Source: Candidatus Woesebacteria bacterium
GTDB taxonomy: Bacteria > Patescibacteriota > Microgenomatia > UBA1406 > HO2-37-13b
DNA: 64,000 bases
Direction of reading: 5' to 3'
NCBI GenBank assembly: GCA_018062135.1
Contig: JAGOSW010000001.1
Coordinates: 3,210-67,209 of the forward strand
Shown here: piece by piece, positions 6,941-50,831 of the stretch
How positions within the stretch are numbered: the first letter of the stretch is position 1
Layout: each line of letters starts with the position of its first letter
Translations under genes and position numbers: made by a program
Notes under the pieces: generated by a model
What the model saw: only the letters and a program-made list of their open reading frames with translations
Database searches by the model: none
Told to the model about the DNA's origin: nothing

Positions 6941-7052
6941 TGCCTTGGTGATTTGAGCGTCTTGGAACCACCCCTTCCCATTCCGAACAGGGCCGTGAAA
7001 CGAGATAGCGCCGACAATACTTACAACGGGACGATAGGTCATGGCCGAGGCA
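6941..7052 (+). rRNA. rrf: 5S ribosomal RNA (stand-alone, not linked to 16S/23S in this window)
   Basis: Contains CCACCCCTTCCCATTCCGAACAGGGCCGTGAAAC...AGCGCCGA, which matches the conserved 5S core. Helix I closes between TGCCTTGG at the 5' end and CCGAGGCA at the 3' end. A T7 run follows at 7053-7059. Confidence 0.9.
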
Positions 7053-7101
7053 TTTTTTTATTGCCATAAATCATTTTTCTGAGGCCAAAAGAACGTTCGT
7101 G

Positions 7102-7107
7102 TATAAT
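7102..7107 (+). promoter_or_regulatory. -10 box (TATAAT) 8 nt upstream of the ATG at 7116, giving a leaderless-type architecture
   Basis: The sequence reads gTATAATatacatacATG, with no Shine-Dalgarno between the box and the start. Confidence 0.45.
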
Positions 7108-7115
7108 ATACATAC

Positions 7116-7688
7116 ATGCCTCACACACTAATTAAACGTCATCATAATCACATACTGGCGAAAGAGCGCCACACACGCTATCTGAATTCCTTCAGTGTGT
7201 ACCCAAAGACGCGATTCGAGTCACAAAACGACGACGAACATATTATTCTTCTTTTAAGAGCCCACCCAATAACCTTTATTCCTTGGATTGCTACTGCTGT
7301 TGGTGCGTTTTTCCTACCCATACTTTTAAATTTTATTCTTCCCGAGTTTCTTACAGTCGCGCAGGTCCTTTTTCTTAATGTTTTTTGGTATAGCGGATTG
7401 ATTACATACGTATTTCTTAATTTGTTGCTGTGGCTTTTTAATGTAGGTATTGTGACAGATCAACGAGTACTAGATGTCGACTACTTTAATATAATTCAAA
7501 AATCAGTTAACGCGACCACTCTTGAGGAAGTATCTGATGTTGGTGCGAAGACAAATGGCTTTATCCGCTCACTGTTTAACTATGGCGATGTCTTAGTGCA
7601 AACAGCTGGCCCTGCCTCTGATATCGATTTTCGTGCAGTTCCACAGCCTGCAGAAGTAGTAAGTATTATTAACGAGATGATGCACTAA
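7116..7688 (+). CDS. membrane protein, bacterial PH (YdbS/YdbT-like) domain
   Basis: Two TM helices followed by a small soluble domain. The layout resembles the bPH_2 family. Homology was not verified. Confidence 0.55.
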   Translation: MPHTLIKRHHNHILAKERHTRYLNSFSVYPKTRFESQNDDEHIILLLRAHPITFIPWIATAVGAFFLPILLNFILPEFLTVAQVLFLNVFWYSGLITYVFLNLLLWLFNVGIVTDQRVLDVDYFNIIQKSVNATTLEEVSDVGAKTNGFIRSLFNYGDVLVQTAGPASDIDFRAVPQPAEVVSIINEMMH

Positions 7689-7689
7689 A

Positions 7690-7914
7690 ATGATAGATTT
7701 ATTTTTAAATGGCGATATTTTTGGGCTTTTTATAAAGCTTTTTGGTGTTGTCTTGGGAATTCTTTATATGTTCTTTTGTATTATTCTCATTCGCCAGCTT
7801 GGTACTATGCGAAAAACGTTGTCGATTAATGATGGGGGTATTTTAGATCTGATAGCTTATATTCAGGCTCTGCTTGCAGCATTCCTTGTGTTTTATGCCC
7901 TGTTTATACTATAA
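7690..7914 (+). CDS. small membrane protein (2 TM)
   Basis: A 74-aa hydrophobic ORF tightly coupled to the preceding gene (1-nt gap between the stop codon ending at 7688 and ATG 7690). Confidence 0.5.
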   Translation: MIDLFLNGDIFGLFIKLFGVVLGILYMFFCIILIRQLGTMRKTLSINDGGILDLIAYIQALLAAFLVFYALFIL

Positions 7915-7925
7915 ATAGAGTATAC

Positions 7926-9746
7926 ATGTGGGAATATAGTATCTATTTGGGTAATGAATCCGACTCAATTCATGTCGATTTTGTCTCGACAGATAATCTT
8001 TTTGTTGTTGCTTCGATCGAAAATTCTATAGAAAAAGAGGCATTTAAGGGGTTATTTGAGAAGGTGCGCGACGCAGTTGCTGCGGAGCGCGTGCATAATC
8101 TCGCTGCTTTTGAAAAAGTTATTGATCGCGAGTTTAAAATAGTTGAAAAAAATCCTGGTTTTGCTCTTGCAGCTTCGCTTTCTGTTGAAAACGTACTGTA
8201 CTTAGTTACACGCGGAAATGGCACGGTTTATATTGATCGAGGTCCAATTTTTCAGAATTTAGTTTCTGGTGATAATACGGCCTCTGGTTTTTTGCAGGAA
8301 AATGATGTTATTGCTCTGACGACGGGAAGTTTCATGAACCGCATAACACCCCCTACTCTACAGAGATTCATTCAAGGCAAAACACCTCAAGAAATTGTGG
8401 AAGCAGTAACACCTGATCTAAAAGGAAATGATGACACGGGGCTTATTGCGCTTTTTAGTCGTCATCATGTCAGGGAGGCCGCAGAGGAAACGATGGAGGA
8501 GAGGGAGGCAGAAGAAGAACTAGAATATCAAGTTATTCCACCACCAAGTGAAGCCCCGATGTATGCAACTCCAACGCAACATGTCGTTGCAGAAAAACCA
8601 CAGCCGAACTTTTCTTTAAAGAGCCTTTTAGCAGGTATCCGCCCGGGCAGCTCAATGGGAAAGAAGGTGACATTTGCGCTTCTTATTATTTTGGTGGGAA
8701 TTTTTGTATGGAGTGTTGTGTTGGGCGCTCAGAGAAGGCAAAAAAACACCTTTATTAAAAAAGTTGAAGCGCAATCATTATTAATTGACTCCCAACTAGA
8801 AGAGGCTTCGTCATTAACGACGACAGATGTAGACAGGTCTTTGGAGCTTTTAGCATCAGCAAAGCAGTCGTATGAGGCTCTAAATAAAGAGGCAGTCGAA
8901 AAGAAATTAAGCGATTTGGACCAGCTTGCATCGATAAAGGTCAAAATCGCGGAATCAGAAAAATCTATTAAGAAAGAAGAAGAAACAGCATCAGAAGAAT
9001 TTTATGATCTAAACCTTATAGAAAAGGGAGCGGAGGCAAAGAAAATGTATTATGACGGGACGACGCTCGCGTTGTTGGATAGTGAAAATGCAAAAGTGTA
9101 TCTGCTAGATCTTGCAAAGAAGTCAGTCGTGACGCGCAAAGACGGAAAAATGGCAGATGGCGTATTCGTCGCTTTACATCAAGACGAGCCATATATTTTT
9201 AGTAGCACTGATGGTGTTTTTAGAACAACAAAAGAAAAAACAGATGTTTTGATTGAGAAAGACGAAGAATGGGGAAGTATTAAAGATATGTGGATGTATA
9301 ACGGCAATATTTATATAGTCGATGCAGGAAAAGATGAGATATATAAATATCTGGTCGCTGAAGGTGGATATTCTGCAAAAAATTCGTACGTAAAGTCAGG
9401 TCAAGCTGATTTGGCTAAGGCAGGAGCTATGGCAATCGATAGATCCGTATATGTAATTAATGGTTCTCGAATATTAAAGTATGAATCGGGAAGCAGCGTA
9501 GATTTTACGGTGAAAATTCCTGGCGGTGATGACATTGTGTTTGACGACATCTATACGAGTGAAGATATAGACAATGTATATTTGTTAGATAAGGAATCAA
9601 AAAAGATTTTCGTTGTTTCGAAAGAAGGAGAGTTTCTAAAACAAGTAACCGCATCTACAATTGCTTCCACAACTGATTTTGTGGTTGATCAAACTGAAGG
9701 GATTTTGCTTCTCGTAAAAGATAAGATTGTGAAGATTGTTGAATAG
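7926..9746 (+). CDS. hypothetical membrane-spanning protein (N-terminal cytoplasmic domain, acidic linker, one TM, coiled coil, C-terminal repeat/propeller-like domain)
   Basis: Long uninterrupted ORF of 606 aa. TM segment VTFALLIILVGIFVWSVVLGA. C-terminal repeats of the Y(L/I/V)(L/V)D type. No family recognised. Confidence 0.7.
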   Translation: MWEYSIYLGNESDSIHVDFVSTDNLFVVASIENSIEKEAFKGLFEKVRDAVAAERVHNLAAFEKVIDREFKIVEKNPGFALAASLSVENVLYLVTRGNGTVYIDRGPIFQNLVSGDNTASGFLQENDVIALTTGSFMNRITPPTLQRFIQGKTPQEIVEAVTPDLKGNDDTGLIALFSRHHVREAAEETMEEREAEEELEYQVIPPPSEAPMYATPTQHVVAEKPQPNFSLKSLLAGIRPGSSMGKKVTFALLIILVGIFVWSVVLGAQRRQKNTFIKKVEAQSLLIDSQLEEASSLTTTDVDRSLELLASAKQSYEALNKEAVEKKLSDLDQLASIKVKIAESEKSIKKEEETASEEFYDLNLIEKGAEAKKMYYDGTTLALLDSENAKVYLLDLAKKSVVTRKDGKMADGVFVALHQDEPYIFSSTDGVFRTTKEKTDVLIEKDEEWGSIKDMWMYNGNIYIVDAGKDEIYKYLVAEGGYSAKNSYVKSGQADLAKAGAMAIDRSVYVINGSRILKYESGSSVDFTVKIPGGDDIVFDDIYTSEDIDNVYLLDKESKKIFVVSKEGEFLKQVTASTIASTTDFVVDQTEGILLLVKDKIVKIVE

Positions 9747-10037: not shown

Positions 10038-11798
10038 CTACTTTACTGTTACTGATTTAGCAAGATTTCTTGGCTTATCTGGATCTGCTCCGCGGCCGAT
10101 TGCGCAGTAATAGCCGAGGAGCTGGCCGACAATAATGTTGCCCAAGATTGTTAACGGTCCTAAATCGGGTGTGATAATGGTCGTATCAAATTCTGATGCT
10201 TCAAAAGGAGCGATGCCTATAATGCGACCGCCGCGTGCCTTAACTTCTGCAGCAGAAGCACGCACTTCGCTTTCGTAGCCATCATGCGCTCCTAAGACGA
10301 TGCATGGTGTACCTTTATCTATTAAGGCAATGACGCCATGCTTTAGCTCTCCAGATGAGAAAGCCTCGCCATGGATATAGCTCGTTTCTTTTACCTTTAG
10401 TGAACATTCCATGGCAGCAGGATACTGGAGATCCTTACCTAGAAAATATATATGTTCATTCGTAAGTAAATTCGCCGCAAGCTGTGTTATGTCGTCGACA
10501 GTTTCTTTAGTAAGCCAGGATTTAAGCTTACCCCCTGCCTCGACAATCTCTTGGCGTAAGTCCTTTGGTTTATCTCCGCAAAGACCAGCAAGTCTATACA
10601 TTGTTGCTAATTGTGCAGTGAATGCTTTTGTCGAGACAACAGCAATTTCTGGCCCACTTCCAACCATAAGTGCGACGTCGCTTATGCGCTCGAGCGTTGA
10701 ACCCCGTGCATTTATCGCTGAAATAATTTTTGCACCTTTCTTCTTAGCCTTCTTTACAGCTATTAGCGTGTCAGCTGTTTCACCACTCTGCGATATCGTG
10801 ATGAGAACGGTATGCTTATCAGCGAACTCAATTGTTGAAGCCGATTCATATGCACCACACATTTCAGACGCAACACCATGTTGTGCAAGCATATACTTTG
10901 TAATGAGCGCGCAAAAACCAGCAGATCCGCAGGCGGTAATAATAACTTTTTGCGCATTCTTAACTAAATCTGCCGCCGCTATCAGCTCGTCGTCATTAAT
11001 CTTTGCTGTCTTTGGGATAGTGACGAGCTGCTCCATGATCTCTTTGAGCATATAATGGGAGTAACCGCCTTTTTGAGCCTCTTCTGCTTCCCAATCGATT
11101 GTTGTGGGCACTACATGAAGTGTTTTTTTTGAGGCAATATTGAAAACTTCGCAACCCTTCGCACTTATTATTGCTCCTTGTCCATCATCAAGAAAAACAA
11201 CATCTTTTGTGTATTGCAAAAAGGCAGTAACATCTGAACCAATAAAATATTCATCTTTGCCGATTCCTACAATTATCGGCGATCCGTCACGACATACGCC
11301 AATCTCGCTTGTTTTAAGATTGAGAACGCAGATTGCATTAGATCCAGCCAACATGCTAAATGTTTTGCAAAGTGCCGACTTAAAATCTAAGTCGCGCATG
11401 TTCTTCTCAATAAGATGCGCAATAACCTCCGTATCTGTCTCAGAAACAAAGGTATTGCCTTCAGCGATAAGTTGAGCTTTTAGCTCCTGGTAATTCTCAA
11501 CAATGCCATTATGGACGACGGCAATGGTCTCATCCGCATTAAGATGCGGGTGCGCATTTAACTGTGTGACACCCCCATGGGTCGCCCAACGTGTATGGCC
11601 AATGCCAATATTGCTGTTGGGCAGCGTTGTCTCAGCGTCACCAATCTTTCCAACTTTCTTCTCTACAGCGATTTTCTCACCTTTTCCAACTGCAATACCC
11701 CAGCTATCATAGCCGCGATATTCAAGCGTTTTTAACCCTTCTAAAATCATTTTCGGACTGTCCTGACGGTTTCCAACGTATGCAAAAATTCCACACAT
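10038..11798 (-). CDS. glmS: glutamine--fructose-6-phosphate aminotransferase (isomerizing)
   Basis: Ntn start MCGIFAYVG, two SIS domains, full length of 586 aa, and a typical C-terminal end. Confidence 0.97.
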   Translation of the reverse strand: MCGIFAYVGNRQDSPKMILEGLKTLEYRGYDSWGIAVGKGEKIAVEKKVGKIGDAETTLPNSNIGIGHTRWATHGGVTQLNAHPHLNADETIAVVHNGIVENYQELKAQLIAEGNTFVSETDTEVIAHLIEKNMRDLDFKSALCKTFSMLAGSNAICVLNLKTSEIGVCRDGSPIIVGIGKDEYFIGSDVTAFLQYTKDVVFLDDGQGAIISAKGCEVFNIASKKTLHVVPTTIDWEAEEAQKGGYSHYMLKEIMEQLVTIPKTAKINDDELIAAADLVKNAQKVIITACGSAGFCALITKYMLAQHGVASEMCGAYESASTIEFADKHTVLITISQSGETADTLIAVKKAKKKGAKIISAINARGSTLERISDVALMVGSGPEIAVVSTKAFTAQLATMYRLAGLCGDKPKDLRQEIVEAGGKLKSWLTKETVDDITQLAANLLTNEHIYFLGKDLQYPAAMECSLKVKETSYIHGEAFSSGELKHGVIALIDKGTPCIVLGAHDGYESEVRASAAEVKARGGRIIGIAPFEASEFDTTIITPDLGPLTILGNIIVGQLLGYYCAIGRGADPDKPRNLAKSVTVK

Positions 11799-11859: not shown

Positions 11860-12023
11860 GCGGTACGCTGTGTATATGCTTTCGTATCCTTTCAGTTACC
11901 TGAAAGCTTTAAAAGCTTATTTAAGGTCGACAGCTTGGTTTCGACCTGAGGGCACCCGCAGATTATTCGCTAACCCCCTCCTCGTATCCCTTCCATCTTG
12001 CGATGAAGTCGGGCCACACGCTT
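11860..12023 (-). ncRNA. glmS ribozyme (GlcN6P-dependent self-cleaving riboswitch) in the glmS 5' leader
   Basis: The minus strand reads AGCGUGUGGCCCGACUUCAUCGCAAGAUGGAAGGGAUACGAGGAGGGGGUUAGCGAAUAAUCUGCGGGUGCCCUCAGGUCGAAACC.... This matches the conserved glmS core as I recall it (A/GCG cleavage-site context, GGAAGGGAUACGAGG, GGUUAGCGAA, GCGGGUGCC). It lies directly upstream of glmS. The ends are approximate. Confidence 0.85.
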
Positions 12024-12111
12024 TAAAAGTTTATTTCACCCAGACGTATTGTCAGGGAACGATTAATGTCTACCGTAGTTGTATTGTAGGACCAAAGGGG
12101 AAGTAAGTCAA

Positions 12112-31907: not shown

Positions 31908-32031
31908 CTTTGCATTCGTCTTAAAACTATCTCATAGTTGTTTTCTAAAGGACTTATGATATAATGTTGATCTAGTTTTTCCACCGGTCCACAGTAGTGG
32001 ACCATCAGCCACCTGAAAGGGGCACCCGACC

Positions 32032-32238
32032 ATGCAGCAGGACGACTTGGATCCGACGACCCGCACCGATGACGAGGACGAGGGCACCGGCACCGGCGCC
32101 GGCGCGAGCGCGGCCGACACCGGTAGCGACCTGGCCACCGATGCCCGCCCGGCCGAGGAGGACACCGTGGTCGACGACCGCGAGATCGGCGGCGAGGGCG
32201 GCGAGGCCCTGAGCGGCATCGAGGGCACCGGCTACTAG
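32032..32238 (+). CDS. small highly acidic protein (68 aa) encoded in a high-GC insert
   Basis: An ATG preceded by GAAAGGGG. Nearly all codons end in G or C (GAC, ACC, GGC, GCC, GAG...), which supports this frame over the three overlapping ORFs in the track. No family recognised. Confidence 0.55.
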   Translation: MQQDDLDPTTRTDDEDEGTGTGAGASAADTGSDLATDARPAEEDTVVDDREIGGEGGEALSGIEGTGY

Positions 32239-32292
32239 GCGCCCGGCGCCAGGTGGAACTATACTGCTCAGCGCAATAGCGCAGAGCAAACT

Positions 32293-32324
32293 AGTCGGGC
32301 GGGGGAACCAACCCCCGCCCGACT
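32293..32324 (+). terminator. GC-rich perfect 13-bp hairpin (AGTCGGGCGGGGG-aaccaa-CCCCCGCCCGACT) at the 3' edge of the high-GC insert
   Basis: Read directly from the sequence. There is no U-tract, as is common for terminators of high-GC bacteria. Confidence 0.5.
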
Positions 32325-32539
32325 GCCATTACTCTTCATTAATCCTCAAATGCTAGAATATAGCTTCCCATACGAGTCGCATGCACTTTCTGTGAGGGCT
32401 TTTTCAAATGCGGGCCGAAGGCCCTCTCTTATCTTTATCTACTGTATTTTAGGTACTTCAAAATCGTATTAAACTGTATTACAAATTTCATACACTGTAT
32501 GACGGTTTTGACTGAACTATAAAGAGTATGCAAAGAGGT

Positions 32540-35437: not shown

Positions 35438-36922
35438 CAGTAAATCTGGATTCACAGGAACCGGATAATTTCCATCAAAACACGCAGTGCAGAAACCATT
35501 CTCTCTTCCACCCAATCGTGAGCCAATGCCAACCATTTCTTGCGTATCCATATATGCAATCGAATCAGCCCCAAGAATTGCTGCTATGTCTGCCTCCGTG
35601 CGTCCTTCAGCAATAAGTTCTTCATTCTCACCCGTAAAATCAACTCCATAAAAACAACCGTGTTTAATCGTTGGTGATGCGCTTCGTATATGTACTTCTA
35701 GGGCTCCAGCATCACGGCACATTTTTACCAGTTTTGTCATAGTTGTGCCACGCACAACAGAATCGTCAACTAATACAATTTTTTTTCCTTTTACAATTCT
35801 TTCGACAACGGTGAATTTTTCAGCAACAGCATCGCTTCGACCATCTGGGAGAATAAAAGTACGTCGTACATAATGATTGCGTAGAAACCCTTCTCGCGGT
35901 TGTAAATCCATTTTATCAATCTCATCAGCCGAATAGCCTTCTTGCATGAGGTGATGCATGATTGCTGCAGAATACCCTCGTGCCGACGTGGTTCCCGATG
36001 AAGGTATAGGAACAATAACATCAGGGATAAAGCCATCGGCAATATCTCTATTTGCTAATGCTTTTCCACATTCCTCTCTAAATTTATCAACTCTTATGCC
36101 ATCAAATTCACTTCCAGGGCTTTGAAGGTATACATGCTCAAAGATACACGTCGCTGGTTTTACTTCTGGGAAATCTATAGGAATTTCTGTGATGCCATTT
36201 TGGTCAATGCGAAGACATTGGCCGCGTTTAACTTCAACAATAGTTTCAGAATCATCAACATACTGAACAAACGCCATTGTTTCTGAGGCTGCTACGAAAC
36301 CGTTGCCATCTCGTAGCGGCGCATAATGGAGCGGTCTAAATCCCCACGGGTCCCGCACAAGATATAATGCGCCAGTTTCTCGATCAGCAACTGTAAGGCT
36401 GAACGCGCCTTCGGCGCGAGGTAAGACTGCCTGTAGGCGCTCTTCAATAGTCTGCTCTGGTTTTGCGTTGAGCGCTTTATGCAAAACATGGGTATCTGAA
36501 GACAAAACAGCCCGCTCGTCTTCGTCTAGTTCGTCTAAAAAGCTGAGCGGATTCGTAATATTTCCATTATGAGCTGTGGCGACCCTATCTCCTTCATCGC
36601 AAAATGGTTGCCACGCATCGGGACCTCCTGACGTTGAATAGCGATCATGTCCTAATGCAATATTAACATCAGCATCTGCTACGATAATTCCAGCGGCATT
36701 ATCTCGGACGATTCCTTTATTACGATACGCACTGATAGTTCCATCCGGAAGAAATCCCACAACGCCAACACCTTCTTCACCGCGATGATTTTGAGCTGCT
36801 AAGGCTGGAATAAGCGTAGACATAGGAGCAGGAGTATCAAAATAAAACGCAGCAACAGCACAATTATGTCGAATCCCTTCAAAGGGTTCGTGTGCCGCGA
36901 TATCACTCTCGGCTAAAGCCAT
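35420..36922 (-). CDS. purF: amidophosphoribosyltransferase
   Basis: Ntn glutaminase domain (..NCAVAAF, HNGNITN) and PRTase motif IVLVDDSVVRGTT. Confidence 0.92.
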   Translation of the reverse strand: MALAESDIAAHEPFEGIRHNCAVAAFYFDTPAPMSTLIPALAAQNHRGEEGVGVVGFLPDGTISAYRNKGIVRDNAAGIIVADADVNIALGHDRYSTSGGPDAWQPFCDEGDRVATAHNGNITNPLSFLDELDEDERAVLSSDTHVLHKALNAKPEQTIEERLQAVLPRAEGAFSLTVADRETGALYLVRDPWGFRPLHYAPLRDGNGFVAASETMAFVQYVDDSETIVEVKRGQCLRIDQNGITEIPIDFPEVKPATCIFEHVYLQSPGSEFDGIRVDKFREECGKALANRDIADGFIPDVIVPIPSSGTTSARGYSAAIMHHLMQEGYSADEIDKMDLQPREGFLRNHYVRRTFILPDGRSDAVAEKFTVVERIVKGKKIVLVDDSVVRGTTMTKLVKMCRDAGALEVHIRSASPTIKHGCFYGVDFTGENEELIAEGRTEADIAAILGADSIAYMDTQEMVGIGSRLGGRENGFCTACFDGNYPVPVNPDLLLGKSC

Positions 36923-36924
36923 AA

Positions 36925-37791
36925 TTACGAAAAGTTTGTAATCCAGTGCTTGTCTGATTCAACAGTCAGATCCAGAAAAACTTTACGATTTGTTGCTGTT
37001 TCCAATTCCTTTCGTGACATAGAGCCAATTTCTTTAATGCGCCTTCCACCTTCGCCAATCAGCATCTTTTTATACTTATCTGTAGTTGTTAAAATTCGCG
37101 CCCTAACATATAGCATGCCGTTATCCCGATCTGCAATCTCGTCAATAAGCACAGTTGTTGTATAAGGAACTTCTTTTCGTGTGCGAAGAAAAACTTTTTC
37201 GCGAATTAATTCTGCAAGAAAAATCTTTCCATCAATATTTAATGCAGGATACGTATATTCTTCCTTCTTAACCAGTGGGGTATCCCTTTCTGGCATTTTC
37301 TCAAAAATAGCCTCGAGCAGAGTTTTTAAATGCATTTTTTCAAGCGCTGAGACCTTAATAACCGTATCGAATTCATCTTCTAAAAATTTATATAGCGGGA
37401 GGAACGAAGGTTCTTCCACATCGATCTTATTTATGACAAGAATTTTCGGAATGTTAAATTTTCGCACTATGCCCAGTACGCGTGATTCTTCGTAATCGCG
37501 TGTTCTTGTGTGGTCAATGACATATAAAACCAAATCAATGTTTCCCTCAAAGGGCTCCATTACTTTTTGGTTTATTTTCTTTGAGAGCGCATCTGTGGCT
37601 TTACGAAAAATACCTGGCGTATCAACAAAGACAATTTGTCCTCTTTCGTCTTCGTACAATCCCTGAATCGGAAAACGCGTTGTCTGGGGTTTTGGCGATG
37701 TTATTGCGACTTTTTGGCCAATGAGATTGTTGACGAGTGTTGATTTGCCAACGTTTGGTCGGCCAATGAGCGCTACTGTACCTGCTTTCAT
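36925..37791 (-). CDS. era: GTPase Era
   Basis: G1 GRPNVGKST, G3 DTPG, G4 NKID and a C-terminal KH domain. Confidence 0.95.
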   Translation of the reverse strand: MKAGTVALIGRPNVGKSTLVNNLIGQKVAITSPKPQTTRFPIQGLYEDERGQIVFVDTPGIFRKATDALSKKINQKVMEPFEGNIDLVLYVIDHTRTRDYEESRVLGIVRKFNIPKILVINKIDVEEPSFLPLYKFLEDEFDTVIKVSALEKMHLKTLLEAIFEKMPERDTPLVKKEEYTYPALNIDGKIFLAELIREKVFLRTRKEVPYTTTVLIDEIADRDNGMLYVRARILTTTDKYKKMLIGEGGRRIKEIGSMSRKELETATNRKVFLDLTVESDKHWITNFS

Positions 37792-37869
37792 TGTGGATAT
37801 TGTATCATTTACATGTAGTTTTATACTAGGGATTTATCCTTTTGTGGTAAAATAAACTCAACTTTAAAT

Positions 37870-37940
37870 TGGGGGATCGTTCAATGGCAGGACAACAGCC
37901 TTTGGAGCTGTTTATCGGGGTTCGAATCCCTGTCCCCCAG
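37870..37940 (+). tRNA. tRNA-Gln (anticodon UUG), CCA not encoded
   Basis: Manual cloverleaf. Acceptor UGGGGGA/UCCCCCA. U8. D-loop with GG. Anticodon stem ACAGC/GCUGU with loop CU-UUG-GA. T-arm CGGGG-UUCGAAU-CCCUG. Discriminator G. Confidence 0.85.
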
Positions 37941-38031
37941 CAAAATAGGACTCGAACTGGAGCATGACAAAAAGATAGTGTATGCTAGTTTGTGTAGGCC
38001 TGTGGGAAGAAGTTACGTTCTAAGAAGCCAA

Positions 38032-38526
38032 ATGTTAGGAGATATAAAACCGACACTTTCATTTAATCTATTCTTTAACAGGGATAGACACCAACCAGAA
38101 ATCAAGTTCTATACGGAGCATAATAAAGGAAAGCTATTATACTTTGTCAAGAATATCAGCAAGTACTCAGCATATCAAATACACATTTACTCATATGAGG
38201 ATCACTATCAGGAAGTCGCTCTTCAGTTCATAGCACAGGCTGGAGATGTTCTTGAACCGGGAGAAACAAAAAAAGCAACTTCATATATAGAGTATCCCTT
38301 TGTTGGATGTATGTCGTATAAGGAATATTGGGTTGAGTTTAGTGATGCTGAAGGCAACCATTATAGGTATTCCTCAGGTTCAGACAATAGCGGTATCGAG
38401 CTTGCAAATGTTAAAAAGCTGAAAAAAAGGACAAAACATATAACAACAGGAATAAGGAAGAAGAATAGAATAAAAACCCTTCTATCAAGTTTCATGTATA
38501 AAATTAGATATTTGACAAAAATTTAA
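38032..38526 (+). CDS. hypothetical protein (islet ORF A)
   Basis: The track ORF starts at GTG 37978, and ATG 38032 is more plausible. Basic C-terminal tail. No family recognised. Confidence 0.5.
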   Translation: MLGDIKPTLSFNLFFNRDRHQPEIKFYTEHNKGKLLYFVKNISKYSAYQIHIYSYEDHYQEVALQFIAQAGDVLEPGETKKATSYIEYPFVGCMSYKEYWVEFSDAEGNHYRYSSGSDNSGIELANVKKLKKRTKHITTGIRKKNRIKTLLSSFMYKIRYLTKI

Positions 38527-38536
38527 ATGCTAAAAC

Positions 38537-39331
38537 ATGGGTAAATCAGTGGACAAGGAAGAGATTAATCAAACAAGTAGTACTCAACCTTCCAAAATAT
38601 CAGATGCTCCAATGTATCCAAGAATTAGAAACAGATTCATTGCAAAACTTCTTGATTCTATCGACAAAGATTGGGATGACTTAACAAAAGAATCTTCAAA
38701 AGCTAAAAAGGACAAGGTAGAATTATCTTTCCATAGACTTAAAGAAGCGCTGGTGAAGCTGGACTATCGATTTTTCGAGCTTTATCAGGCGGAAGAGATC
38801 TTTGATCAATTGGATGAATCAGAAATGGGCGAACCATTACATTATTTACAGATTTACTATGTAGACAAAGTTGAAGCATTTCATCAACAAATATATGCAA
38901 CTATCTCAACGCTTATATTGGTGTTAAACCATGTAGGTATTGAGAATGATTTCGTACAGCATCCAATACATAGTGTAAAAAAGTTTTTAGAGTTCATTGG
39001 CGATCATAAGTCATTTAGATACAGAAGCACAATCCAGAATCAAAAAAGCTTGTTAGAAAGTTCAGTTGACTTTAGATCAAAGTTTATTGATCATCCACAA
39101 CAGCACCTGTTACATGATTGGGCAACATTTAGAGCAAATGATGAAGCTTTCTTGATTTTCTTTATAAGAAAGGGAAATGAGGTCTATTTTATCGACCCAA
39201 CAATTCATCCATCTGATGCAGAGTTTAAACCACCAATTAACTGTGGTAAAGATTATTACATTCCACCAAGTCCTCTGGACACTCTGAAGGCATGTCTTTC
39301 ATTAGTTAAACATCTACTTGATATCGAGTGA
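38537..39331 (+). CDS. hypothetical protein (islet ORF B)
   Basis: A 264-aa ORF, helical by composition. No family recognised. Confidence 0.6.
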   Translation: MGKSVDKEEINQTSSTQPSKISDAPMYPRIRNRFIAKLLDSIDKDWDDLTKESSKAKKDKVELSFHRLKEALVKLDYRFFELYQAEEIFDQLDESEMGEPLHYLQIYYVDKVEAFHQQIYATISTLILVLNHVGIENDFVQHPIHSVKKFLEFIGDHKSFRYRSTIQNQKSLLESSVDFRSKFIDHPQQHLLHDWATFRANDEAFLIFFIRKGNEVYFIDPTIHPSDAEFKPPINCGKDYYIPPSPLDTLKACLSLVKHLLDIE

Positions 39332-39342
39332 GTCCTATACAT

Positions 39343-39369
39343 AGGCGTTCGAATCCCTACTCCCCAGCA
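39343..39369 (+). repeat. degenerate direct copy of the 3' end of tRNA-Gln (att-like remnant)
   Basis: AGGCGTTCGAATCCCTACTCCCCAGCA aligns with tRNA positions 37916-37942, CGGGGTTCGAATCCCTGTCCCCCAGCA. By manual alignment 22 of 27 positions are identical. Confidence 0.6.
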
Positions 39370-39477
39370 GAGTTGCTATGAGTATCAAGCATCAAATAGT
39401 AGATGAAATGCTTCTTAGATTATGATATCAATCTATCCTCAGTACCTCAATTCTATCTTTGATATAATCAAGTCGCT

Positions 39478-40281
39478 ATGCACGCATTTAGAACAAGAAT
39501 AACTGATTTGCCTCGCACATATATCCTATACAGAATTAAACACAGATATTACTTACTCTGTTGGTTAGAGCATGGTATTGATGAATCAATGTATATCTGG
39601 TTTGATGACAACATTGACAATTCATGGGAAGTTACCGCTAAACACTCGCAAGATGAAATTGATGGTAAAGTAACAATTGAATTGACACAACAAAAGTATA
39701 AGATTTATGACCCTCATTTGTCTTGGCACCCCTCAGGAAAAGTACATGTAAGTGGTTATAACGAAGCAGGTAGGATGAAGGAAAGACTTATTGCAGATAA
39801 GAAAGCTGCATCATTGCAGGATATTTCTAATGGCCAGACAGTACCATTTTCCCAAATTGTCTTTCCGACAGTAAATTTTCGGAATATGTTTACATTCATG
39901 GGAAAAGGACTTCCTGAAATTATTTCCAAGAATAAGTATTATGTGGTGATAAATAGGAAGGGTCATAAAATCAATAATTCCGGTGCTAAAGACGAAGCCT
40001 ACATCATTATTGATGATGATATTATCCCCAAAGGCAAGAATCTGAGTATCGATTTCTGCATTCATGACAAAAAGGTAGTAGCTGAGCCGATCGGAAATCT
40101 GAATAGGAATTTAATTTTTTCTGAAATTGTTAGTTCACATAAAGACATGACCCAGAATGCATTTGGTTTACGATTATTTTACTCAGATGTTGAATATGAC
40201 TTGAAAAAGGTTAAGGGCTTAATTGCAACTTGTTTTAACCAAGAATCTTATGATCTATTTCAGCTATCAAGAGCTAGATAG
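39478..40281 (+). CDS. hypothetical protein (islet ORF C)
   Basis: A 267-aa ORF. TATAAT lies 9 nt before the ATG. No family recognised. Confidence 0.6.
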   Translation: MHAFRTRITDLPRTYILYRIKHRYYLLCWLEHGIDESMYIWFDDNIDNSWEVTAKHSQDEIDGKVTIELTQQKYKIYDPHLSWHPSGKVHVSGYNEAGRMKERLIADKKAASLQDISNGQTVPFSQIVFPTVNFRNMFTFMGKGLPEIISKNKYYVVINRKGHKINNSGAKDEAYIIIDDDIIPKGKNLSIDFCIHDKKVVAEPIGNLNRNLIFSEIVSSHKDMTQNAFGLRLFYSDVEYDLKKVKGLIATCFNQESYDLFQLSRAR

Positions 40282-40344
40282 TTAAGTATTAGCCTATCAA
40301 CCTCCGAACTTTTCACCTTAGATTTCATCCTGTACAATATTACT

Positions 40345-42033
40345 ATGGAACTATACCTAATGATTTTTGCTGGCGTAATTATTTATGGCGTTCTTAGTAG
40401 CAGAAAATCAAAAGGGATTACTTACACGGATCAATCGGGTGAAAAGAAGACCGAGTCATTGCAGCGTAGAAAGTCTAGAAAATTTCTTACGGTTAATAAA
40501 CCTGAAGGTTTTAACATCACTCCTGAAATAAGGAGCATTTTAGATCTGATGGATAATACCAAGCAGAACGTTTTTCTAACCGGAAAAGCTGGTACTGGAA
40601 AATCAACACTCCTCAGGCACTTTCGTGCTACAACAAACAAGAATCATGCTGTTGTTGCACCAACGGGTATTGCTGCAATTAACGTTCAAGGACAAACCAT
40701 TCATTCATTCTTCGGATTCAGAATTGGGGTCACACTGGGTTCGGTACGACCTGTGAGTTATGAAAAGTTAAAGGTAATACGGAATCTTGAAACCTTGATT
40801 ATAGATGAAATATCTATGGTAAGAGCAGATTTATTAGATTGTATTGATAAGGCTTTACGGATAAACCGCCGTAACACATTGCCATTCGGAGGAGTACAAG
40901 TTATTGCAATAGGTGATCCTTATCAACTCCCCCCTGTTGTAACAGCATCGGAAGAAAAATTTATTCAAAGGACTTACGGTGCTCCACATTTTTTTAACGC
41001 GATGAGCTATAAAACTAGTAACTTTACTACACGAGAGCTGACGAAAGTTTATCGTCAGAGCGATGGTGTCTTTATTGATATTCTTAATGCAATTAGAACT
41101 GGGGATCACAGTGAGAGTCATATTAACCAATTAAACAGCTTGACTAGATCTAATCGGCCAACTGATTCATCAATAAAACTGGTTACTACTAATAATATGG
41201 CACAGATGATAAATCAGTCACAACTAGATTTGATACAATCAGAAGCCGCACACTACAGTGCTCAGGTATCAGGCAACTTTTCTGAAAAAGCTGCCCCAAC
41301 AGCAATTGACTTGTATCTTAAGGAAGGGGCACGAGTAATGCTACTAAATAATGATAGGGAAGGTCGTTGGGTGAATGGTGATGTCGGTTTAATTATAGGA
41401 CTGAGTAAGTCATCGGTCAAAGTAAAGTTTGAAGACGGAACATATGAAGATGTTGAACCTAATATTTGGGAAAATATTCAATTTGAGTTTGACGAAGAGA
41501 CTCAAAAAATTGAGCCAGTTATAGTAGGAAAATTCGTTCAACTTCCGGTTAAGCTTGCCTGGGCAGTTACGATACATAAATCACAAGGTAAAACATACGA
41601 ATATGTTCATATTGATTTTGGTTCGGGAACCTTCGCTCCTGGTCAAGCTTATGTTGCATTAAGTAGAGTAACTTCTCTTAACGGCCTTTCATTTGAAACT
41701 CCCATATTACCTAATGATGTGCTAATAGATAAAGCTGTGAAAATCTTCATGGTGCCCGAACTCATTAAAAAGAAGGTTACTAGTTTAGTAGATAAGGAGG
41801 ATGTAGATATAGCAAGAGAGCAAAAGCAAGACGATATAGCAAAATCAGATATCAACAAACTCAAGTTTTTTATCCAAAATGCAGAAAGATATGCGACCGG
41901 CACAAAAAAATCTAAGGAAAAGGTCGAGCATTCGATCAAGGTCTTTAATGCGATGAAAAACAATCTTTCAGATGATGAAATCAAAGATTTTGAATCTGCA
42001 CTTAAGCGTTACAAAGGAAAATTACTAAGTTAA
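40345..42033 (+). CDS. Pif1/RecD-like SF1B DNA helicase with N-terminal hydrophobic segment and C-terminal charged extension
   Basis: Walker A GKAGTGKST, Walker B IIDEISMV, GDPYQLPPV and TIHKSQGKTYEYV. The N-terminus LYLMIFAGVIIYGVLSS is TM-like. Confidence 0.85.
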   Translation: MELYLMIFAGVIIYGVLSSRKSKGITYTDQSGEKKTESLQRRKSRKFLTVNKPEGFNITPEIRSILDLMDNTKQNVFLTGKAGTGKSTLLRHFRATTNKNHAVVAPTGIAAINVQGQTIHSFFGFRIGVTLGSVRPVSYEKLKVIRNLETLIIDEISMVRADLLDCIDKALRINRRNTLPFGGVQVIAIGDPYQLPPVVTASEEKFIQRTYGAPHFFNAMSYKTSNFTTRELTKVYRQSDGVFIDILNAIRTGDHSESHINQLNSLTRSNRPTDSSIKLVTTNNMAQMINQSQLDLIQSEAAHYSAQVSGNFSEKAAPTAIDLYLKEGARVMLLNNDREGRWVNGDVGLIIGLSKSSVKVKFEDGTYEDVEPNIWENIQFEFDEETQKIEPVIVGKFVQLPVKLAWAVTIHKSQGKTYEYVHIDFGSGTFAPGQAYVALSRVTSLNGLSFETPILPNDVLIDKAVKIFMVPELIKKKVTSLVDKEDVDIAREQKQDDIAKSDINKLKFFIQNAERYATGTKKSKEKVEHSIKVFNAMKNNLSDDEIKDFESALKRYKGKLLS

Positions 42034-44954: not shown

Positions 44955-45611
44955 TTACGAAGTAGTTTTATAACCAAAACCTCTAATTGTTTTTATAAGG
45001 TGATGCCCAATTTTTTGCCGAATATTCCTAATATTAACTTCAACAGTATTCGGCAAGATATCAGCATCGAAATTCCATACATGATCGATTATCTCTTGTT
45101 TGGAAATAATTTTTTCAGGATTCCTCATAAAATATTCAAGAATTGCATATTCTTTTTTAGATAAATTGACATTCTTATCTTTTCTTTTTACGACTTGATT
45201 ATTTGTATTAATTTCGATGTCACTTAATCTTAATTGCGCTAGTAGTGTCTTGCTTGGTCTACGAGAGAGAGCTCTTATGCGGGCAATAAGTTCGTCAAAG
45301 GAAAACGGTTTTGCGAGGTAGTCGTCTGCACCAATGTTTAATCCATCAACTTTATCTTGTATCTGCGACTTTGCTGTAAGCATTAATATCGGTGTAAAAA
45401 TGTGATTTTTGCGAAGTTCAGCACAGATTTTCATGCCATCCATACTAGGGAGCATTCTATCAAGCAGAATGATGTCATAGTTCTCGGTCGAGGCCATGTC
45501 ATAGCCAATAAGACCATCATATGCAACATCTACTGCATAACTTTCTTGTTCGAGTCCCTTTTTGATGGTGTCGGCAATACGACGTTCATCTTCAATACAC
45601 AATATTCGCAT
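44955..45611 (-). CDS. OmpR-family response regulator
   Basis: Receiver domain (ILLDRMLPSMDG, LTAK) plus a winged-helix output domain (RGFGYK). Confidence 0.93.
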   Translation of the reverse strand: MRILCIEDERRIADTIKKGLEQESYAVDVAYDGLIGYDMASTENYDIILLDRMLPSMDGMKICAELRKNHIFTPILMLTAKSQIQDKVDGLNIGADDYLAKPFSFDELIARIRALSRRPSKTLLAQLRLSDIEINTNNQVVKRKDKNVNLSKKEYAILEYFMRNPEKIISKQEIIDHVWNFDADILPNTVEVNIRNIRQKIGHHLIKTIRGFGYKTTS

Positions 45612-49718: not shown

Positions 49719-49934
49719 TTCTGTGTTCCTAACATCAACTTCGGCAGCCAGCCGCTGGTCGTGGCCACAAGTGGCCCCGGGCCGTCGTAGACGGCATTGG
49801 TCGGTATGTTTCCGACCAGCGGCTGGACTGCCTGGGGGTTAGTACCCCGTGAAGGTGATTACCGGCTCACGCCGGCAGCGCCGCAGAGCGGCGCTCAAGG
49901 ATGCCCTCAAAGGGCGTCTAAGTGTATGAGGTTG

Positions 49935-50585
49935 TTAGAGCTGCAGCTGCTGGCGGGTCGCCGGCTGCCACATCATCGCGATCTCGTAGCCCAGCAGGTA
50001 CTGCCGCAGTGCGCGCAGACGGTGGTGGCCGGTGGCCGCCATCGCTGCTCCGCCCATGTTGGCATCGTCACGCCACGCGAGGTGGCCGTCGGTCCACGTC
50101 TCGTTGGTGGCCGCCATGTACTGGCAGCCGGGTGGATTGAAGGTCGTCGCAACGCCGTAGGCCAGGTGCCGGCTGCCGGTATTCGTGCTGTAGTTGGCGA
50201 TCAGTTGCTGCCGCTCATCGTTGCGCCAGACCGTCGTCGCCCAGTTGTGGCCGTTGAAGCCCTTCGCGCTCGCGATGCCGATGCCGGTGTACCCCGCGCT
50301 GGCCATCTGCTGCGCCGTCGTCTGCCCGTTGTCCATGGCGATGGCCTGTTGCGTCTGGCCGTCGTGGCCGTAGCTGCGCAGCAGAACCATCTGGTTCGGG
50401 TTGAGGTTGGAGTCGGTGTTGAGCGCGATCAGCTGGTCAGCAGCACTGCCGACGTTGTTGATCGTCGCCACGTTGTGGTCACCAGAGACAGCGTTCGCCG
50501 CCGCCAGGTTGGCCGGGCGGCTGAACGCACCAAGGAACATGATCGCGATCGCGATCGGAACGGTCCATCGGAGGAAGCGTTGCAA
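49935..50585 (-). CDS. secreted protein of unknown function, encoded in high-GC (Actinobacteria-like) codon usage
   Basis: TTG start at 50585 with GAGGGA 7 nt upstream. Nearly all codons end in G or C. Signal peptide MQRFLRWTVPIAIAIMFLGAFSRPANLAAANA. Chosen over the plus-strand ORFs in the same DNA. Confidence 0.7.
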   Translation of the reverse strand: MQRFLRWTVPIAIAIMFLGAFSRPANLAAANAVSGDHNVATINNVGSAADQLIALNTDSNLNPNQMVLLRSYGHDGQTQQAIAMDNGQTTAQQMASAGYTGIGIASAKGFNGHNWATTVWRNDERQQLIANYSTNTGSRHLAYGVATTFNPPGCQYMAATNETWTDGHLAWRDDANMGGAAMAATGHHRLRALRQYLLGYEIAMMWQPATRQQLQL

Positions 50586-50831
50586 GAGGTATCCCTCACT
50601 TTGTCTTCGCGTAGATGGGTTGGTCTCTCCGTCAGGTGACGGGAGGTGGGGAACTGCGGACGATGCGACTAGGCGATCAGGGCGGTCCCCGGATCATGTA
50701 CTTCTGCCTCCTTTCATGGTGGCAAGCTTGGATGGATAGACACTGACGCCCAAGGTAGCTGGTCAGTAGAGCTCTAAAGACATTTTTATAATATCCCTAA
50801 AATTCTACTAACCAACTTTCAAATTTCTAAT

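Follow-up and report, generated by a model that had tools for sequence, protein, structure and literature searches.

An integrase-less islet at a tRNA-Gln gene in a Candidatus Woesebacteria genome and its probable origin from a large serine recombinase element

Direct repeats of tRNA 3′ ends are the textbook signature of tyrosine integrases. A cis-mobilizable element (CIME) is defined as an element that has lost its integration and transfer genes and has kept its attachment (att) sites attL and attR (PMC6323972). Among mycobacteriophages, those with a serine integrase reportedly do not have tRNA genes as integration targets (PMC9262239). Here, we describe an islet bounded by a tRNA-Gln(UUG) gene and a partial copy of the 3′ end of that gene, located in a stretch of 64,000 nucleotides, hereafter the window, from a Candidatus Woesebacteria bacterium (GenBank assembly GCA_018062135.1, contig JAGOSW010000001.1, positions 3,210 to 67,209). 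The islet carries two open reading frames (ORFs), ORF A and ORF B, and lacks a recombinase, whereas its left end and ORF A are homologous to elements in related genomes that encode a large serine recombinase (LSR). The coordinates of all features are listed in Table 1.

The insertion and its empty site

A preliminary description of the window had noted that the 3′ part of the tRNA-Gln recurs 1.4 kb downstream with 22 of 27 positions matching and had taken this as a mark of site-specific integration. ARAGORN and Rfam both call the tRNA, which is the sole tRNA found by ARAGORN in the window, and the repeat is confirmed. The count given there is correct for the 27-mers, and the similarity extends 2 nt further to the left, giving 24 identical positions of 29 (83%) between two directly oriented copies, 37914-37942 and 39341-39369, that lie 1,427 bp apart. 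The mismatches are clustered, and two blocks, of 12 and 8 nt, match perfectly. A 23-nt pattern searched with up to three mismatches matches the window at just these two repeat sites, and two matches were obtained in none of 100 dinucleotide-preserving shuffles. Copy 1 is the same, letter for letter, as the tRNA-Gln 3′ end in three related loci (L001, L002, and L003).

The relatives of the Era protein encoded next to the tRNA belong to Candidatus Roizmanbacteria (Microgenomates, candidate phyla radiation [CPR]), an affiliation that they also indicate for the present genome, with Era identities of 97% for L001, 92% for L003, and 89% for L002, and the divergent arrangement of era and tRNA-Gln is kept in many Roizmanbacteria and Microgenomates loci. 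The gene order in L003 is era, tRNA-Gln, ORF C, ORF D (a PIF1/Dda-like helicase), and ORF E. The window aligns with L003 from 36900 to 37942, as far as the tRNA end, and window positions 39341-39438 align with L003 positions 9908-9813 at 77.6% identity, the latter being the same L003 tRNA end with the adjoining trailer. A single L003 segment, composed of the tRNA 3′ end and trailer, is therefore matched by both repeat copies, and the flank match continues past copy 2. Judged from this alignment, L003 is the empty attB opposite the occupied site in the window, with flanks that join exactly at the repeat, which bears out the proposed integration at the tRNA gene. Relative to the empty site, the segment 37943-39369 is almost certainly an insertion.

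None of L001, L002, and L003 has ORF A or ORF B, and the empty site in L003, which keeps the order of era, tRNA-Gln, and ORF C without them, indicates that they are not core genes. In L001, other genes occupy the interval from tRNA-Gln to ORF E, and in L002, a mobile element of more than 9 kb lies at the same tRNA position. What follows this tRNA thus differs between L001 and L002, which makes the site a hotspot. The GC content of the islet (0.349) is below that of the window (0.404) and falls in the lowest 2% of 1.4-kb segments; the AT-richness noted in the preliminary description is thus real, although the whole 38-47 kb stretch is likewise low (0.35-0.37). Promoter and terminator scans of the islet gave no signal above the shuffle background.

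Recombinase elements at tRNA-Gln and the reconstructed attachment site

The islet contains ORF A and ORF B only and no integrase gene. Translated searches in which four serine recombinases and the remaining genes of related elements served as queries found no recombinase gene, domain, or pseudogene in the islet, in agreement with its earlier description as integrase-less, and no LSR gene (Resolvase plus Recombinase) anywhere in the window. LSR genes are present in the relatives L002, L005, L042, L084, and L085. In L002 (contig CAZTFB010000002.1), an LSR of 545 residues (PHROG integrase, 1.6e-72) is encoded directly downstream of tRNA-Gln, and the 3′ end of its gene overlaps the tRNA in antisense orientation, a geometry that is repeated in L042, L084, and L085. 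These ORFs extend over 7918-9555 in L002, 8277-10004 in L042, where the frame runs right through the tRNA gene, and 3983-5620 in L084 and L085. Their last ~20 codons are the antisense of the tRNA (…DSNP…), and integration or excision would therefore alter the C-terminus of the LSR.

Two parts of the islet are related to such elements. The tRNA-proximal bases of the L002 element, GAATAGGACTCGCAGC, resemble window positions 37943-37958, AAATAGGACTCGAACT, with about the first 13 nt common to both, and the tRNA-proximal end of a prophage-like element of Roizmanbacteria in L005 (contig MFZT01000034.1) matches window positions 37943-37988 with 82.6% identity over 46 nt (E value of 7e-6). The L005 element encodes an LSR of 421 residues, the only L005 gene whose identity was confirmed by a tool. 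Inspection of the translations by eye suggests a terminase-like large ORF, a LexA-like repressor, and a diversity-generating retroelement, the last of which (6985-9663) lies between the LSR and tRNA-Gln and appears to comprise genes for a reverse transcriptase and an Avd-like four-helix protein, along with a target gene whose C-terminus varies.

The second relation is that of ORF A. A 6.65-kb LSR element in L084 and L085 (4034-10625) ends with the gene of its homologue P0022 (57% identity), which has the same orientation relative to the tRNA. The two copies of this element are 99.8% identical and have different chromosomal flanks, one being located in tRNA-Gln(CUG) and the other in tRNA-Gln(UUG). 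The two target tRNAs differ throughout except for the last ~12 nt. Besides the LSR, the element encodes a phage-type replication initiator (PHROG 1408, 3.6e-13), a helix-turn-helix protein, and small membrane proteins. Conjugation genes were not seen in the related complete elements, namely, the prophage-like element of L005 and the small replicon of L084.

Across 34 tRNA-Gln loci, the 132 ORFs located up to 5 kb downstream of the tRNA include Resolvase three times and Recombinase three times; among the families listed for these loci, there is no other recombinase family and no tyrosine integrase. An alignment-based search of IMG/VR gave 63 viral contigs with LSRs that are 40-47% identical to the L002 LSR, and six of them have a tRNA just past the LSR stop codon on the opposite strand (three Gln, one Asp, one Ser, and one Glu). 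A single-protein search for close viral relatives of the L002 LSR found none, and the LSRs of these elements are only ~27% identical to annotated phage serine integrases.

Joining the right end of the insert to its left end gives GTTCGAATCCCTA-CTCCCCAGCAAAA-TAGGACTCGAAC (with an N13 spacer), a dyad-symmetric sequence that we read as a candidate attP. The dyad spans ~38 bp, with 9/10 to 12/13 matches between the arms, and is centered on CAGCA within the CCCCAGCA core, where the identity between attL and attR stops. The P′ arm is a 9/10 inverted T-arm, and the P arm keeps the 12-nt T-loop block. Among the 76 tRNAs in the fetched loci, an inverted T-arm within 50 nt downstream of the tRNA is confined to two cases, the window and the L005 organism. 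Scans for the exact patterns of the attL/attP junction and the P′ end gave nothing in viral contigs, and in metagenome contigs they gave only the L005 organism again. Judged by sequence, both arms are present and apparently intact.

These observations fit the following history, in which an LSR element in an ancestor of the present genome would have recombined its attP with an attB formed by the tRNA-Gln 3′ end and trailer. The crossover would have occurred at about the CAGCA that closes the tRNA gene, so that attL would consist of the host tRNA end and the P′ arm of the element, and attR would consist of the tRNA-like P arm of the element and the host trailer. The tRNA would have remained intact because the crossover lay at its last bases. 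A later internal deletion would have taken the recombinase and all else that lay from the left end to the final cargo genes, so that ORF A and ORF B would now be bordered by ~90 nt of left end on one side and by the right end on the other. The parent would most likely have been one of the LSR prophages or small integrative replicons for which tRNA-Gln is the insertion site in related Microgenomates. We infer that copy 1 is the host B arm of attL, and copy 2 is probably the P arm of attR, a tRNA-like sequence of the element itself. Its five mismatches would then be original differences between the P and B arms, and copy 2 would never have been identical to the tRNA. Three relatives have the identical tRNA end, and it is the distal copy that differs, which agrees with a B arm from the host and a P arm from the element and requires no decay, and the clustering of the mismatches fits original differences between the arms. 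The copy described as degenerate in the preliminary description is hence a real partial copy of the tRNA end, but it is probably an att arm of the element rather than a decayed host end. Taken as a whole, a deletion remnant of an LSR element is a probable origin for the islet, which is unable to move by itself.

Several other arrangements were seen at tRNA-Gln in the window and in related loci. In the window, the islet is followed by ORF C and ORF D (39478-42033), the latter encoding a PIF1/Dda-like superfamily 1 helicase. ORF C is an orphan with four clusters, one homologue of which was found on a 5.7-kb contig carrying a rolling-circle Rep, and the pair of ORF C and ORF D is kept in L003 and lacking in L001. 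These two genes probably stem from another mobile element that entered this hotspot earlier. A downstream search for a third repeat copy or tRNA remnant bounding ORF C and ORF D as an older island found none, and a T-loop-like motif at 45548 was rejected as a chance match inside a response-regulator gene. In L085, a GIY-YIG gene lies past the end of the LSR element, and after it the terminal 20 nt of tRNA-Gln recur exactly (10990-11009); the segment 10626-11009 is another tiny integrase-less islet at tRNA-Gln. In L133 (6360-6556), tRNA-Gln is followed 25 nt on by a divergent second tRNA-Gln 3′ fragment and then by an LSR gene, which suggests accretion at a secondary att site. In L081, an ORF B homologue is located 5.4 kb downstream of tRNA-Gln(CUG) in a methyltransferase-rich, apparently integrase-less island, and a lone T-arm-like sequence, GAGTTCGAATCCCAC (11064-11095), ~330 nt after this homologue may be another att remnant.

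Some of the evidence weighs against an LSR origin of the islet. The window itself is devoid of an LSR, and the enzyme is deduced only from the relatives. The right end of the insert is unmatched to the end of any known LSR element, the loci examined for L002 and L005 stopping short of the P-arm ends of their elements, and the P arm of the L084/L085 element is just vaguely tRNA-like. Shared ancestry means that the dyad symmetry and the matches to L005 and L002 are not independent, and the excised attP junction, sought in viral and metagenome contigs, gave nothing new. A tRNA 3′ end repeated with 24/29 identity is equally the expected appearance of a tyrosine-integrase core after decay. The islet might accordingly be read as the remnant of a tyrosine-integrase island that carried an exact copy of the tRNA 3′ end, crossed over inside the tRNA, and lost its integrase by deletion, with the displaced host end at 39341-39369 having since decayed at 5 of 29 positions. 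The direct repeat would then have its textbook cause, and the divergence of the repeat (17%) is about that of the neutral flank from L003 (22%). The exact 20-nt repeat around the GIY-YIG gene in L085, which is unrelated to the LSR element there, shows that such repeats arise in the clade, and the reported avoidance of tRNA genes by mycobacteriophages with a serine integrase (PMC9262239) points in the same direction. However, the 34 tRNA-Gln loci yielded LSRs three times and no tyrosine integrase among the families listed, and both the left end of the islet and ORF A are homologous to LSR-bearing elements. The conservation of the tRNA 3′ end in three relatives places the differences in the distal copy, and the mismatches are clustered around the perfect blocks, so that we consider a tyrosine-integrase origin unlikely.

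Instead of a dead relic, the islet could be a miniature element that is still mobile, with functional att sites and with an LSR and directionality factor supplied in trans by a co-resident prophage. It would then spread ORF A and ORF B as a hitchhiker of the CIME or satellite kind. The intact look of the arms (the 9/10 inverted T-arm in P′, the 12-nt T-loop block in P, and the common core) and the uninterrupted ORF A and ORF B agree with this, as do the definition of a CIME by lost integration genes and retained attL and attR (PMC6323972) and the LSR element in L133 that adjoins a tRNA-Gln 3′ fragment. Yet no second copy of the islet was found, the only other contig with an identical ORF B sharing the same flanks; the 64-kb window is without an LSR, the attP junction was absent from the viral and metagenome collections scanned, and ORF A and ORF B occur together nowhere else, which makes present mobility rather improbable. 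Little can be said for copy 2 being a chance match or what is left of another tRNA gene, duplicated or separate, next to resident ORF A and ORF B genes, apart from the T-loop motif GTTCGAATCC being widespread among tRNAs. The sequence upstream of 39341 is the coding end of ORF B, with no 5′ half, D arm, or anticodon arm, and neither ARAGORN nor Rfam calls a tRNA at 39.3 kb. The shuffles never gave a second match, and both ORFs are missing in L001, L002, and L003. The empty site in L003 has exactly one copy, with the flank continuing after copy 2, and this alignment effectively refutes the idea.

Cargo genes and further features of the window

The preliminary description had given the islet two ORFs without a recognizable family, and this holds for both the coordinates and the families. 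Searches of ORF A, ORF B, and ORF C against Pfam, PADLOC, PHROGs, and NCBIfam gave nothing usable, PHROGs yielding for the islet ORFs only a match to a family of unknown function (E value of 0.005), and no housekeeping homologue was found for ORF A or ORF B. In tblastn searches, neither ORF A nor ORF B had a match in annotated phages, nor did ORF B have one in plasmids. All ORF A homologues are 164 residues long and start with MLGDIKPTL, which supports the ATG at 38032. The AlphaFold2 model of ORF A is of low confidence (pLDDT of 62) and shows a beta-sandwich with a basic C-terminal helix, for which Foldseek found no significant match in the PDB. A conserved system of ORF A and ORF B was considered and rejected, since the two are never found together in 4 ORF A and 8 ORF B contexts; they are unrelated cargo genes and not a conserved pair.

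ORF B has 19 homologues, and its family comprises 198 clusters at 50% identity. Only Y120, R180, and H186 are invariant across 102 diverse members, and the last two are the ends of the string RSKFIDH (residues 180-186), a conserved motif of the R-x4-6-H type. The preliminary description had mentioned this string as a weak HEPN-like cue. Its conservation is stronger than was thought then and marks RSKFIDH as what appears to be a real functional motif, but a HEPN profile or fold match was not obtained. The AlphaFold model is confident (pLDDT of 86 and pTM of 0.85) and predicts a long helical hairpin, two further helices, and a beta hairpin. Foldseek gave no significant neighbor in the PDB (best E value of 1.7) or BFVD (best E value of 0.24), and the only recurring matches are HepT chains, which are weak (E values of 5-7 and TM scores of 0.37-0.46). 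Pfam scans of 19 members gave no HEPN family at an E value of up to 10, and PADLOC, NCBIfam, and two PDB profile searches gave nothing for the family. ORF B resembles HEPN RNases such as the HepT toxin in having an invariant R-x5-H on a helical bundle and differs from them in the position of the motif at the C-terminal end of a helix and in the extra beta hairpin and C-terminal region. With no profile match and weak HepT matches, HEPN membership of ORF B is not supported, and a HEPN-like RNase role is conceivable yet doubtful.

The ORF B family members are single genes in variable regions, with neighbors that include methyltransferases, DUF3800, Mrr_cat, toxin-antitoxin, phage packaging, and excisionase-like genes. 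The closest homologues are part of a three-gene module composed of proteins of ~320 and ~205 residues and the ORF B homologue. This gene context makes a role in defense or as a phage 'moron' plausible. It would be a long shot to suppose both that the islet can be mobilized in trans by a tRNA-targeting LSR and that ORF B founds a new-fold group of R-x5-H (HEPN-like) RNase-type defense or abortive-infection effectors circulating on CPR mobile elements.

Elsewhere in the window, two sharply bounded patches of high GC (~0.6-0.7, compared to a genome GC of 0.40) are located at 31990-32325 and 49750-50750. The first contains an acidic ORF of 68 residues (32032-32238) and a GC-rich hairpin, and the second contains an ORF of 280 residues (49797-50639) with no Pfam match. 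Neither patch has an Rfam match at an E value of up to 0.1, and they could be foreign DNA or assembly chimeras. The glmS ribozyme and the 5S rRNA in Table 1 are routine features.

Table 1. Positions of the islet, its borders and genes, and other annotated features in the window
Feature	Position	Strand	Remarks
tRNA-Gln(UUG), integration target	37870..37941	+	ARAGORN; Rfam tRNA, 59.5 bits (37870-37940)
era	36925-37791	-	Divergent from tRNA-Gln
Direct-repeat copy 1 (ATCGGGGTTCGAATCCCTGTCCCCCAGCA)	37914..37942	+	T arm and 3′ acceptor strand of the tRNA
Whole insert relative to the empty site	37943..39369	.	1,427 bp, GC 0.349
Left end of inserted DNA (putative P′ arm)	37943..37988	+	Inverted T-arm-like half-site TAGGACTCGAAC at 37946-37957
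ORF A, cargo	38032..38526	+	164 residues; three homologue clusters, 55-57% identity
ORF B, cargo	38537..39331	+	264 residues; uncharacterized family; invariant Y120, R180, H186
Direct-repeat copy 2 (ATAGGCGTTCGAATCCCTACTCCCCAGCA)	39341..39369	+	Right end of the insert; 24/29 versus copy 1
Host flank (putative B′ side of attR)	39370..39438	+	Homologous to the sequence right after tRNA-Gln in the empty site L003
glmS ribozyme	11864-12033	-	70.5 bits
5S rRNA	6944-7050	+	58.8 bits

Relation to described systems

The islet draws attention to tRNA-Gln as a hotspot of integration among Roizmanbacteria and Microgenomates, groups in which the biology of mobile elements is barely charted, and it points to a clade of LSRs that would target tRNA 3′ ends with genes running antisense through the tRNA. 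Such a target class is unused by the well-studied serine integrases of mycobacteriophages (PMC9262239), and these recombinases could serve as new integrase/att pairs. ORF B offers a handle on an uncharacterized family of ~200 clusters with an unmatched predicted fold and an invariant Arg/His/Tyr triad, making it a target for biochemistry.

Compared to Islander/TIGER-type tRNA islands and degenerate prophage remnants, the islet has the same intact tRNA at one border and a partial copy of the tRNA 3′ end at the opposite one, together with a lower GC content and cargo whose function is unknown, and a relative likewise shows the empty site. It differs in its size of just 1.4 kb without an integrase, in having relatives that point to a serine and not a tyrosine recombinase, and in a crossover that was apparently at the last bases of the tRNA and not within an extended identical core. 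The Streptococcus CIMEs (ICEberg 2.0, PMC6323972) likewise have no recombination or transfer genes, keep attL and attR, and occupy a site into which complete elements with the same type of att also insert, whereas the likely parents of the islet resemble CPR LSR prophages or small replicons, with no conjugation genes seen, and not integrative and conjugative elements. Formally, the islet can be classed from its sequence as CIME-like or as a degenerate island, which is a known kind of object. Its relatives are similar to LSR systems of the phiC31/Bxb1 type in encoding Resolvase, Recombinase, and Zn-ribbon proteins beside the att site, and the candidate attP of the islet is likewise a dyad of about 38 bp whose identity to attB is confined to a short central core. 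Unlike in those systems, the target here is a tRNA 3′ end, the LSR ORFs of the relatives run antisense through the tRNA, and the window itself is without an LSR. The islet itself is an ordinary genomic scar, and what is less ordinary is that serine recombinases targeting tRNA 3′ ends appear to be involved and that one of its cargo genes, ORF B, is predicted to have a confident but unmatched fold.

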